A stretch of DNA of 33,903 nt from a virus (Duplodnaviria; Caudoviricetes), in IMG/VR virus record IMGVR_UViG_3300032277_000042, positions 1-33,903 of that record, one strand, 5' to 3'. The notes below the pieces were generated by a model, which worked only from the letters and a program-made list of their open reading frames with translations, made no database searches and was not told the origin of the DNA. This document shows, piece by piece, positions 2,191-11,107 of the stretch; the first letter of the stretch is position 1, and every line of letters starts with the position of its first letter. The translations under genes and the position numbers were made by a program.

Positions 2191-2499
2191 GGGGGGGTGA
2201 GGGCTGCTACATCTGCTACATCTGCTACGCGGGGGGCTTCATGTTTAATTCGGCTGAATTAAATATGATTGACGTTGTGCGGGTCGTTCTTGGTTAAAAA
2301 AAAGAAAAAATCGAGGCGGTGCGGGCTTTCGCTTGCCCTGCATAGGTGGGGGGGGTATGCTTGAGCGTGTGCAATTTGATAGCCCCGGTCGCGAACTCGC
2401 GCCGGGGCTTTCTTTGTCTCGCATAAGGGATTTTGAAGCGGTGCGCGTGTCGGGGTATACCAGCACCCGCCCCCCGCCGGCTACCGGGATGGGGGGGGG
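2191..2499. repeat. G/C-tract-rich non-coding region with a 9 bp tandem repeat and a palindrome
   Basis: G7 2191-2197, CTGCTACAT x~2.8 at 2204-2228, G6 2231-2236, TTTAATTC-GGCT-GAATTAAA 2244-2263, G8 2348-2355, G9 2491-2499. Confidence 0.7.
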
Positions 2500-2520: not shown

Positions 2521-2548
2521 TATTCGCATAATCGTGATTATGTTAAAA
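2521..2548 (+). other. dif: XerCD dif-like recombination site
   Basis: TATTCGCATAA-TCGTGA-TTATGTTAAAA versus E. coli dif GGTGCGCATAA-TGTATA-TTATGTTAAAT; 11-6-11 architecture, XerD arm 10/11 identical. Confidence 0.8.
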
Positions 2549-2769: not shown

Positions 2770-3045
2770 CTAGTCAGGCCAATCGTCGGCCTCTAATGCG
2801 ACCGCAATTGCAAGGTAGTTTATCTGATCAACTGCGCTGTCTCGGCCCAGTGAATCACCGAGGTCAACGCGCGCCGCTTTTATCTCTGCCAGGCACCGCG
2901 CAACCTGCACCGCCGTGACTTGCTTGCCCAGCACCAGCGACCAGCGCGTGGCGATGTTTGTGTGCAACGGCAGTGCCGAGCCATAGGTTGCCTCTCGGTC
3001 CTCCAAGATGCCCTGCGCTATGTCGAACGTTTTGCTATATTTCAT
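2770..3045 (-). CDS. DUF6378-like phage protein
   Basis: Pattern R..TYG....H..IA..WS..LG......QVA.CL...K.AR........DS.VD...Y typical of this family. Confidence 0.75.
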   Translation of the reverse strand: MKYSKTFDIAQGILEDREATYGSALPLHTNIATRWSLVLGKQVTAVQVARCLAEIKAARVDLGDSLGRDSAVDQINYLAIAVALEADDWPD

Positions 3046-6200: not shown

Positions 6201-6842
6201 TTAAAACGGGATCTCATCATCCAGGTCGCGCTGCAGGGGCGGCGCTTCTGCCGCTTGCGGGGCTGACGCGGCTCCCGCGGGCGTGGTTTGATTTGGCAGC
6301 CCAAACGGGTTTGACGTTACGGCATCTGCGGCAAACGGGTTGCCCCCACCACCGCCGGTGCTGGCCTCTGCTAGATTGATTACCATAATATCGAGGGGGC
6401 GCATTGCCACGCCGGCTCTGCCGCCCATGTTCCACGCATACATAGCTAATGAAACGTGTATCGTGCTGCCTGACGTAAGCTGAAAATCAGGCGCAGCCGC
6501 ACCGCCGTCTGGCATCCACTGGCGCGGCTTTGAGCCGGGATCGCCATATGTTTTTTTCTTGAGCTTGGCGAGGTAATGGCCCGTTTCATCCTTTTTAAAC
6601 ACGTCGGCCAACGACTGCGGTGCCCAGTCTGACCATCCGGCCTGTTTACCTGCCTCGTACGTCTTGCGCATATCGCCGGCTAAATCCTTGGCTTGATCTT
6701 CCGTCAGCACGAGCGTGACCTCGTATGACCCGTCCGGGTCCGTCGCCTCGGTGGCCACGCTGCGATTTTCGCCAGCGCTGAATTTGTACGCTTTGTCCAA
6801 GCGGCACCACTGGCACAGCACTGATTTCAGCTTCTTTTCCAT
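6201..6842 (-). CDS. ssb: Single-stranded DNA-binding protein (T7 gp2.5-like)
   Basis: Beta-rich core, Gly/Ala/Pro linker, acidic C-terminal tip DLDDEIPF; TAAGGA RBS; between exonuclease and primase. Confidence 0.8.
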   Translation of the reverse strand: MEKKLKSVLCQWCRLDKAYKFSAGENRSVATEATDPDGSYEVTLVLTEDQAKDLAGDMRKTYEAGKQAGWSDWAPQSLADVFKKDETGHYLAKLKKKTYGDPGSKPRQWMPDGGAAAPDFQLTSGSTIHVSLAMYAWNMGGRAGVAMRPLDIMVINLAEASTGGGGGNPFAADAVTSNPFGLPNQTTPAGAASAPQAAEAPPLQRDLDDEIPF

Positions 6843-6858
6843 AGTCTTTCCTTATGTT

Positions 6859-6872
6859 TGGTGAGTGTAAAT
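6859..6872. promoter_or_regulatory. TGGY-N3-TGTAAAT motif copy upstream of ssb
   Basis: TGGTGAGTGTAAAT, intergenic; similar copies at 9797, 9821, 12020, 15801. Confidence 0.5.
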
Positions 6873-6887
6873 TAAGCGCAGCAAAAA

Positions 6888-7700
6888 TTAGTCTTGCTGC
6901 TCCAACCAAGCCGGCAGGTGCATGACGTTGAACGGCCCCCATCGCGTGGTAAATTCTTGCTTGTCTTTTGCCTCGGCAATTTCCATCAGCGCCGCCTCTA
7001 CAATACGGTCGGCGCGAGCGTTGGCCTCATTGCCGAATGTGTGCAGGTGCGCGCAATACGGGTTGCTCTTTTCAACCGCGAGGAACGCGAAATATCGGAC
7101 GTTCCAACCAGCGAGACGCGCGGCAAGGCGGTAGACTGCGCTTTGCAAATCATACCCAAGGTTAAACGCCGCTCTGGTGAAGCCCTTGGGCGATGCGTCC
7201 TGGCACGTTTTCACGTCGCCCATCACGCCGCTGTGCGCGACCCATATGTCTGGCCTGGCCTTTATGACGAGGCCGCTTGGCTCGTGCTTGACGAATAGCG
7301 ACGCTTCGCAGAGCCGGGCTTTATCGCGCAGGATTTTACCGCATTGCGCGTTATCCATGAGCGACTGCGTCATGGCCTCGCACTCGTCGTAATCACCGGC
7401 GGTGAGCAGCGTTTTGCCAGCGGCCTGCGCGGTGGTATACGCGTCTTTCCATTCTTTGCCGCGCCTTGTTTCAGCGCCACGTATGACGTCGCCGCGCTCC
7501 GGCTCCAGCGCCATTGAATGCACAGCCGTGCCAATGTCCGCCACGCTTTGCGTAAGGCTAAACCCGCCACGCTCGGCGTGCAGGGGCGACCTGTTAATCC
7601 ATTGCTTGATGTAGCTCGATGACACGCAATGCGCGCCCTCCAGCTCTTTGAGCGCATGGTATCGCTCGTTTGGTATGGCGGTGTGTATTCCCAGATCCAC
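6888..7700 (-). CDS. RecE/exonuclease VIII-like PD-(D/E)XK nuclease (DUF3799-like)
   Basis: SSSYIK, GTAVHSMALEP, KARPD, DVKT, GYDLQSAVY, FLAVEK motifs. Confidence 0.88.
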   Translation of the reverse strand: MDLGIHTAIPNERYHALKELEGAHCVSSSYIKQWINRSPLHAERGGFSLTQSVADIGTAVHSMALEPERGDVIRGAETRRGKEWKDAYTTAQAAGKTLLTAGDYDECEAMTQSLMDNAQCGKILRDKARLCEASLFVKHEPSGLVIKARPDIWVAHSGVMGDVKTCQDASPKGFTRAAFNLGYDLQSAVYRLAARLAGWNVRYFAFLAVEKSNPYCAHLHTFGNEANARADRIVEAALMEIAEAKDKQEFTTRWGPFNVMHLPAWLEQQD

Positions 7701-10414: not shown

Positions 10415-11107
10415 ATGAAACTTGGAGCATTCTTGTCCGGCTCGGATAAAGACAGCCACCTTAACCAGCGCCGGCAGATTAACACGCTTAACCCTGACCA
10501 TGTTAAATGGTTTACGGAGACACGCGATTTCAGGCGTCCATTTAATGAGCGCAACGCGTTACAACATTGCTTGCAGTATTGCCAAGCCAGTGCATCAACA
10601 TTTGTGTTGGCATCGCTAAACGGCTTTGCAGAAAAAAGATGGCACGGCCTGCGCTACATTGAGACGCAATGCCAAACGCTCGGCATTGATGTTGTGGTCG
10701 CAGACAATCCCGTTGTTTCCAGCGGGTCTATCCAGATTCTTGCCGCTCAGGCAGAATTTGACCGCAACGAGCTGGTCCGTAAATCTAAAGCGGCAATTAA
10801 CGACATCCAGCAGATTATTGCCAAAGAGGGCAGCCACGTTTCAAAATCTGGCCGCCGCATTACGCGCTTAGGGTATCACGGCGCGATGGAAGAGCTGTCA
10901 GCCAAAGCGCAAGTCGCGCGCAACAGCCACGCAGATCAACACTCAACGGATGTATGGCCGCTGGTGGAAAACTTTTTGGCGCGCGGGTTGGGCCTTGCCG
11001 GCACAGCGCGCGAGTTAAACAGGTTGGGCGTGGCCACCGCGAAGGGCGGCAAGTGGCACGCGTCCACCGTGGTAAATGTGCGAAAGAGGATGACGCGTGA
11101 TGAGTGA
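10415..11107 (+). CDS. Serine recombinase (resolvase-family) homolog with degenerate active site
   Basis: Spacing of resolvase motifs retained (ERNALQHCL, VVADNP, ILAAQAEFDR) plus DNA-binding tail ARELNRLGVATAKGGKWHASTV; ATG 10415 with AGGA RBS. Confidence 0.75.
   Translation: MKLGAFLSGSDKDSHLNQRRQINTLNPDHVKWFTETRDFRRPFNERNALQHCLQYCQASASTFVLASLNGFAEKRWHGLRYIETQCQTLGIDVVVADNPVVSSGSIQILAAQAEFDRNELVRKSKAAINDIQQIIAKEGSHVSKSGRRITRLGYHGAMEELSAKAQVARNSHADQHSTDVWPLVENFLARGLGLAGTARELNRLGVATAKGGKWHASTVVNVRKRMTRDE

Follow-up and report, generated by a model that had tools for sequence, protein, structure and literature searches.

Positions 2521-2548 of the DNA analysed here, a window of 33,903 nucleotides that makes up one whole virus record (linear, estimated to be 93% complete), are by sequence a XerC/XerD site of the dif type. 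We consider it somewhat probable that XerC and XerD, recombinases of the host, use this site to join its two terminal copies, giving a circle or a head-to-tail concatemer of the phage genome. The grounds for this reading are the sequence and conservation of the site, its location with the replication block on one side and the small terminase gene terS on the other, a neighbouring end motif, and the presence of dif in the terminal repeats of the coliphage HdK5.

Sequence and conservation of the dif-type site

The site reads TATTCGCATAA TCGTGA TTATGTTAAAA on the plus strand and consists of an 11-bp XerC-type arm (2521-2531), a 6-bp spacer (2532-2537) and an 11-bp XerD-type arm (2538-2548), the last assigned from its sequence, its match to bacterial dif arms and the sites of the family. 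The pattern CGCATAA-N6-TTATGTTAAA is matched with 0 mismatches, and shuffled windows gave 0.07 matches even at 3 mismatches. Comparison with bacterial dif sites, which the earlier note had proposed, was run on 201 Pseudomonadota genomes. At one mismatch or less the pattern occurs in 77 of them, mostly in one copy, compared to 1 of 201 for a reversed control, and for this reason we take the arms to be those of bacterial dif; the 11-6-11 layout with conserved arms is thus borne out. The spacer is a different matter, as neither TCGTGA nor any other spacer starting with TCG is found in the 101 bacterial matches sampled. The commonest spacers in that sample, counted by hand, are TGTATA, GATGTA and GATATA. 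The view of the earlier note that the unusual spacer could favour self-recombination is supported. Two variants of the spacer are seen, TAGTGA in the relative L003 and TCGTGG as a minor allele in the sequencing runs X2 and X5.

A side observation of the bacterial survey was an inverted pair of dif-like sites in 13 of the 201 genomes. In the six pairs that were fetched (L354-L359: G083:C30:34027-34111, G039:C55, G127:C1, G091:C203, G079:C3 and G115:C78, with seven further genomes besides) the XerC arms face inward at a distance of 31-61 nt, and one site has the spacer GATGTA or GATATA with the other being equal or different.

Conservation was assessed through the large terminase subunit (TerL). 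The searches gave 80 viral loci (the best 80 of 118) and 80 metagenome loci (the best 80 of 123), two sets that overlap, and one locus identical to the window was left out. With loci from a pattern scan added, 131 loci having at least 1 kb upstream of terL were grouped into 47 clusters at 95% nucleotide identity. The dif detector requires an inner ATAA and TTATG and is biased to proteobacterial arms. The site is present 619-1333 nt upstream of terL in 25 of the 32 clusters fetched by TerL alone, so the absence from relatives that the earlier note had named as counting against it is not what is found. There are 40 dif-bearing clusters in total, 8 of them with the site in the opposite orientation, and the site is kept over TerL identities of 51-100% while its flanks do not align. 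The 44 distinct sites of this family all have C5 and ATAA in the XerC-type arm, ATAA being a requirement of the detector. The spacer ends with A in all 44 and begins with T in 40, and the four positions between vary freely; TGTATA is the spacer in 4 of the 40 dif-bearing clusters.

The association with terminases extends beyond this family. A pattern scan of a viral collection gave 120 stretches from 9 of its 64 parts, or an estimated 890 or so overall, and 80 loci were taken with their flanks. A terminase lies within 3 kb in 42 of these loci, while 20 are inovirus-like and 18 are other. The 42 terminases fall into 8 BLAST clusters (one representative of each was scanned, one of them matching weakly), from which the link between dif and terminase is a general one. 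The spacers behave unlike those of integrating filamentous phages, as TGTATA is found in 1 of the 42 terminase-linked loci, which have 33 distinct spacers, versus 14 of the 20 inovirus-like loci.

Several loci contain more than one element of this kind. A second dif-like site (TGGGCGCATAA TATATA TTATCTTAACT) lies at L013:4098-4125 (G001:C4, near 32897), 5.8 kb upstream of terL. An invertase-like gene precedes it by about 1 kb, and its orientation is opposite to that of the terS-linked site. In L130 the dif is followed, about 30 nt on, by another dif-like copy whose spacer is 9 nt long, and L153 has an extra XerD arm. The window itself has lone XerC-like half-sites at 2500-2510 and 2416-2426, both on the plus strand, to which the earlier note had drawn attention. 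They are present at these positions, but neither has a XerD arm 6 nt away, and the hexamer GCATAA is not enriched in the window (21 observed and 24.8 expected). The 2500 half-site, which is probably a local duplication without function, has changed in 2 of 3 close relatives; the half-site at 2416 is missing from 1 of the 3 and is not conserved either. No extra GCATAA is found within 150 nt in 21 of 33 family loci, and its density near the site is 1.3 versus 0.7 per kb. We therefore rejected the half-sites as accessory or fold-back elements, since they are not conserved and form no second full site.

In cultured phages, the most informative case is HdK5, an rV5-like coliphage. It has GGTGCGCATAA TGGGTA TTATGTTAAAT at 170 and again at 139039, both inside its exact 459-bp terminal repeat, so that E. 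coli dif with an altered spacer is present in both copies of the repeat. Its published description gives the repeat as 458 bp and, in the portion available, mentions neither the dif site nor Xer (PMC6563267). The 459-bp repeat of LL12 was mapped by PhageTerm, and Xer is likewise unmentioned in the available portion of that report (PMC6658697). The rV5-type repeat is present in 120 phage records. A search of 5,426 complete E. coli genomes found nothing that matches the first 900 nt of HdK5, and thus a tailed phage can have a host dif with an altered spacer in its repeat and yet not be found integrated. Among other cultured phages, the Elizabethkingia phage EKP1 has a dif-like site (L337:56-83) with the spacer CGACCA that ends 26 nt before the terminase gene. 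PVP-SE1, GAP31, CR8, KB57 and the Rheinheimera Barba phages also have matches to the dif query, most of which lie outside annotated genes. With a detector that favours proteobacterial arms, no site was found in the whole records of phiM5, MEP301, OANV2, HTVC010P and MW202879, or in the terminase regions of Hodr, Venkman, P26218, MW202711 and MW202496. A BLAST search with the window site against cultured phages gave only short chance matches and a few microviruses.

Evidence for a genome-end module around the site

The window phage is a podovirus of the SU10 type, with an SU10-type portal, capsid and adaptor among the 53 open reading frames scanned. Its best capsid match is to an Octadecabacter phage (60.5%), and DNA of the window was found in marine, aquatic and microbial-mat metagenome runs. 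The site occupies the gap that separates terS (1601-2119) from a DUF6378 gene (2770-3045), upstream of terS and terL (196-1650), all three genes being on the minus strand. TerL is of the phiM5 type, with 48.9% identity to the phiM5 protein. The small subunit is assigned by homology, as it is 30-36% identical to a cluster whose representative matches the terS family PHROG 1482 and has no direct match of its own. The DUF6378 gene closes the replication block on the side of the end module, and members of the same cluster lie beyond dif in the relatives (25 members). No promoter or terminator was found within 2100-2800. On the outer side of dif, at 2603-2615, there is a CACAATATGTGGT motif, which we take to be NrdR-box-like, and a like motif is found within 200 nt in 9 of 40 lineages. 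At 2204-2228, upstream of terS, CTGCTACAT is repeated about 2.8 times in a G-run-rich stretch that has been deleted or duplicated among close relatives.

A C-run/G-run motif (2454-2499, minus strand), whose C-run corresponds to a G-run at 2491-2499 on the plus strand, is found on the terS side of dif. A C-run is present within 100 nt, 13-82 nt after dif, in 36 of the 40 dif-bearing clusters, compared to 0.4% of background windows, and in its strict form in 9 of 24 loci of other terminase clusters. An exact IHF-like motif is found at most 80 nt from dif in 17 of the 40 clusters (background 0.8%) and is absent from the window. The C-run/G-run motif was also considered as a strong hairpin and was rejected (z 0.34). 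The meaning of the motif is suggested by phiM5, the closest TerL relative with annotated ends (48.9%). Its annotated direct terminal repeat of 357 bp lies just upstream of terL, has its IHF-like motif at 181 and, further on, a C-run at 315-323 (the whole motif spanning 315-344), and ends 34 nt after the C-run. By homology of this motif the window repeat would end near 2457, a point that the C-run/G-run likely marks as the inner end, and would include dif. phiM5 itself is without dif and encodes an integrase of its own. In C72C1 (TerL 43%) the order is IHF-like motif, dif-like site, C-run and terL, with the dif-like site (L203:19397-19424) located between terS and terL. The terminal repeat of LUZ24 (L334, 45442-45625) also has a C-run and then G-runs at its terS-side end, and by eye it has no dif.

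Of the seven TerL-fetched clusters, out of 32, in which no site was detected, five keep the C-run without any dif-like site and one, L018, is without the C-run. The remaining one, L019, was counted as having no dif but has a divergent site (GCTTGTCATAA TGCATA TTACACGCCGT) 934 nt upstream of terL, flanked by an IHF-like motif and a C-run, which may mirror the dif of another host. Because 7 of 32 lineages are without a detected site and 5 of these retain the C-run, dif is, on the distribution observed, an optional and dispensable passenger of the end module.

Sequencing depth gives moderate support for a short terminal repeat spanning the site. In assembled contigs, depth rises about 3.5-fold over 2468-2631 in two of seven runs, X2 and X5. 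With its two alleles summed, X2 has a depth of 43.8 over 2468-2582 and of 52 and 54.7 over 2554-2631, compared to 15.1 and 15.7 in the flanks, whose contigs are unbranched for 2175 and 532 nt. In X5 the depth is 19.7 over 2553-2631 versus flanks of 5.9 and 6.1. These two runs share alleles and possibly come from one sampling site, and X2 may be the source of the window. In X4, one contig over 2246-3039 has a depth of 11.9 next to 11.8 and 10.7, where about 1.4-fold was expected, so there is no rise. X3, X6, X7 and X8 were uninformative on depth. In a toy simulation a repeat at 2455-2640 gave a narrow 3-4-fold peak, whereas with a single pac end the shape was a broad shoulder. Of 2080 settings on a grid, 73 fit X2 within 10%, with inner ends at 2320-2520 and outer ends at 2620-2755. 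Since outer ends below 2620 lay outside the grid, the inner bound alone counts as a test, and no fitting setting places the inner end beyond 2520. Since the peak region is less GC-rich (0.45-0.51 versus 0.59) and the block is also conserved among strains, composition bias or summed strains are not fully excluded as a source of the peak.

Taken with the phiM5 homology and the model fits, the depth in X2 and X5 would place dif inside a short direct terminal repeat of about 150-190 bp, roughly 2457-2640 with uncertain bounds, notwithstanding the lack of a rise in X4. The earlier note had overlooked this genome-end module, and its site is likely located within the repeat. Contig ends were also considered as terminus markers. 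Five of the 34 contigs of one sub-lineage end at most 150 nt from dif compared to 1.2 expected (P 0.007), but the offsets are scattered, lie on both sides and are near homopolymers, and we rejected them for this use.

Possible roles of the site

In the model that we favour, the packaged genome would have a short direct terminal repeat spanning dif, so that the injected linear DNA would have two identical copies. XerCD would synapse these two terminal copies to give a unit circle, or two genomes joined head to tail, and the joined product would then be used for replication, for which the phage encodes a primase-helicase. Because both copies derive from one template, the spacer would be free to drift, and such drift would lead to the diversity of spacers and to poor pairing with host dif. 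Recombination between two dif sites normally needs FtsK. There is no polarity toward the site of GGGNAGGG, which we take to be a KOPS-like octamer, as the three copies on the plus strand all lie beyond 3276 and point away, with none on the minus strand. No known Xer activation factor family was found among the 53 reading frames in Pfam or PHROGs, a search that novel activators would escape. One route to XerD activation away from the septum would be for a junction made by XerC to be finished by replication or by the RusA-like Holliday junction resolvase of the phage (9148-9636, minus strand), which might complete a XerC-only junction. Completion of a XerC-made junction by replication or a resolvase is described for VGJphi and cer in the available portions of two reports (PMC5357621; bioRxiv 10.64898/2026.06.12.731946).

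Some findings speak against end joining by XerCD. The placing of the ends comes from assembled contigs, with a peak in 2 of 7 runs and none in X4. In addition, phiM5 has no dif, and the RecE-like and annealing proteins could join the ends without Xer. The window encodes a Gp2.5-like single-stranded DNA binding and annealing protein and an exonuclease VIII (6201-7700, minus strand), which offer a possible homologous end-joining route and a source of dimers. A methylase is recognised besides these and the resolvase. By Pfam and PHROGs, neither a DNA polymerase nor a tyrosine recombinase is found among the 53 reading frames of this genome, estimated at 93% completeness, and no partition or plasmid Rep gene was recognised among them.

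The earlier note had described the phage as lacking an intact integrase. This stands as to tyrosine recombinases, with the caveat of an unbroken serine-recombinase-family reading frame at 10415-11107 on the plus strand. The active-site motifs of serine recombinases are YxRxS and DRxxR, in place of which its product has FLSGS and SLNGFAEK. The catalytic serine is kept and the active-site arginines are absent, six aligned close relatives agree, and the product differs at these motifs from two of three other phage homologues aligned. The protein is thus probably inactive, and we rejected it as an integrase, given the lack of catalytic arginines in the window and the six close relatives and of any match to a solved structure. 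It is 89-94% conserved in 10 relatives despite the missing arginines, and is perhaps a DNA-binding regulator.

The absence of an active integrase would fit the proposal of the earlier note that the site is an attP through which the phage integrates at host dif by XerCD, as mobile elements that exploit Xer to integrate (IMEXs) do. Gokushovirus prophages integrate via XerC/XerD even though the spacers of the phage dif sites vary, according to the available portion of the report, so spacer diversity alone is no bar (PMC7062461), and TGTATA is found in 4 of the 40 lineages. Marine host genomes are also often without the dif region. We nevertheless regard integration as improbable. TCGTGA, or even a TCG start, occurs in 0 of the 101 bacterial matches, and overlap homology is described as governing Xer integration, a rule that makes an unmatched spacer poor for it (bioRxiv 10.64898/2026.06.12.731946, available portion). 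In 185,579 species genomes there was one TerL relative, on a 34.6-kb contig of phage genes only. Of 401 genomes 15 match TerL, 14 of them at just 32-36% and without a site in the loci fetched. In 59 loci with at least 1.5 kb beyond dif, the genes there are primase, SSB, exonuclease, resolvase, methylase or unknown, and no host gene was recognised in the 47 representatives scanned against PHROGs only. No joint or loose end was seen at the site in seven runs, X8 having a hole and contigs in general dropping rare forms, and the rV5-type analogue is absent from the 5,426 E. coli genomes. Related prophages at dif and attL/attR chimeras, which the earlier note had pointed to as evidence, were thus found neither in the genomes and loci searched nor in the seven runs, the coverage being incomplete for uncultured hosts. 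With no prophage or junction and a spacer unlike any sampled bacterial dif, the claim of integration is not supported, and if our reading is right a dif-like site alone would be poor ground for calling a phage temperate.

The other proposal of the earlier note, a circle resolved by XerCD, fares better in one part. Self-recombination of the site agrees with our reading, but plasmid-like upkeep does not, in view of the missing partition and plasmid Rep genes, and the end module has no match among 72,556 plasmids. The location of the site in a genome-end module points to end joining rather than plasmid-like maintenance, as judged from gene and motif order. A related possibility is that the phage's own RecE and annealing proteins close the circles and that XerCD acts on these as they replicate, resolving dimers or unlinking catenanes, the place next to terS being a tolerated non-coding slot or tied to packaging-linked processing. 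Self-recombination of this kind would also account for the free spacer and for either orientation, the exonuclease VIII, Gp2.5-like and RusA-like genes would generate multimers, and plasmid cer and psi provide a precedent (PMC5357621, available portion). It leaves unexplained, however, why at least 8 TerL clusters have the site in the end module and why it lies inside the rV5-type repeat. Concatemers, moreover, are what lytic packaging calls for and no partition or plasmid Rep gene was found, and we consider dimer resolution unlikely. Xer binding is also known to have roles for Topo IV and SMC unloading, and XerC and XerD could simply bind here without strand exchange, protecting or marking the genome end, recruiting Topo IV or FtsK, or unloading SMC-type complexes. 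The site does adjoin packaging signals and IHF-like motifs, and there is no FtsK-orienting skew. Yet the exact 6-nt spacing and the T and A at the spacer ends, beside the cleavage positions, are kept (40/44 and 44/44) as in recombining sites, and we hold a role in binding only to be quite improbable. Chance or a functionless relic would fit the absence from 7 of 32 lineages and from phiM5, but the expectation is far below 0.07 and the site is kept across the whole range of TerL identities while its flanks do not align. This extremely improbable explanation is already refuted by the conservation, except in the case that an unrelated phage protein binds the arms.

Returning to the joining of ends by host XerCD, the same arrangement could be a general one. 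We put forward tentatively, as a possibility somewhat short of probable, that many unrelated lytic tailed phages, abundant aquatic podoviruses and rV5-like coliphages among them, convergently hold a spacer-altered host dif in a terminal repeat and use XerCD without septal FtsK to circularise their genomes, in which case the arms would also point to the host group.

Novelty and comparison with known systems

Our literature search, with subscription papers mostly outside its scope, found no report of a terminal-repeat dif and Xer end joining in tailed phages. Among its results on dif and XerCD in phages were the NO16 phages, which are tailless (PMC9966536). Hijacking of Xer has so far been described where small phages, tailless or filamentous, integrate and where plasmids resolve their dimers. 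If our reading is right, tailed phages would use XerCD during their lytic cycle, a use that would be new and that looks common, with 42 of 80 viral pattern loci near terminases, and XerCD would act away from the division septum. How short-repeat phages without their own polymerase circularise has largely been assumed, and a test of the question is within reach with rV5-like phages on E. coli K-12. What is new from the window is the end motif anchored on phiM5 and the depth signal, by which the site would fall within a short repeat in a large group of aquatic podoviruses.

The site shares with chromosomal dif, as used by XerC, XerD and FtsK, the 11-6-11 layout and arms that match proteobacterial dif, but it is on a phage and not at a terminus, its spacer is unlike those of hosts, and there is no KOPS polarity toward it. 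The IMEXs (CTXphi, VGJphi, TLCphi, the enterobacterial gokushoviruses and the NO16-like tailless phages) likewise have a phage-borne dif-like site and no active integrase of their own, as predicted here. They are, however, filamentous, single-stranded DNA or tailless phages, and the available portions of three reports describe them as prophages at dif (PMC5357621, PMC7062461, PMC9966536), whereas here the site is in the genome-end module of a tailed double-stranded DNA phage for which no prophage was found. The plasmid sites cer and psi would be alike in self-recombination by host XerCD, as proposed here, with a spacer independent of host dif. They differ in that cer has an 8-bp spacer and accessory DNA for PepA and ArgR (PMC5357621, available portion), compared to 6 bp here, and in that no partition or plasmid Rep gene was found in the window. 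In the Vequintavirus (rV5-like) phages, too, a host dif with an altered spacer lies in a terminal repeat that is exact, an arrangement that we infer for the window. Those phages are unrelated 139-kb myoviruses whose 459-bp repeat has been mapped, and the window repeat is a predicted one.

In phage P1, Cre and loxP cyclise terminally redundant DNA, and loxP lies near the packaging start with two copies in the injected DNA. The placement near the packaging start and the presence of the site twice in injected DNA, predicted for the window, are similar. The differences are that the enzyme would be host XerCD, that an exact short repeat would take the place of headful redundancy, and that the phage would be lytic and not a plasmid prophage. 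Cre is a phage-encoded tyrosine recombinase, and none was found in this genome of an estimated 93% completeness. The window site thus lacks the tested marks of chromosomal dif, of an IMEX and of Cre/lox, and by analogy it would work most like a Cre/lox system in which the enzyme is supplied by the host.
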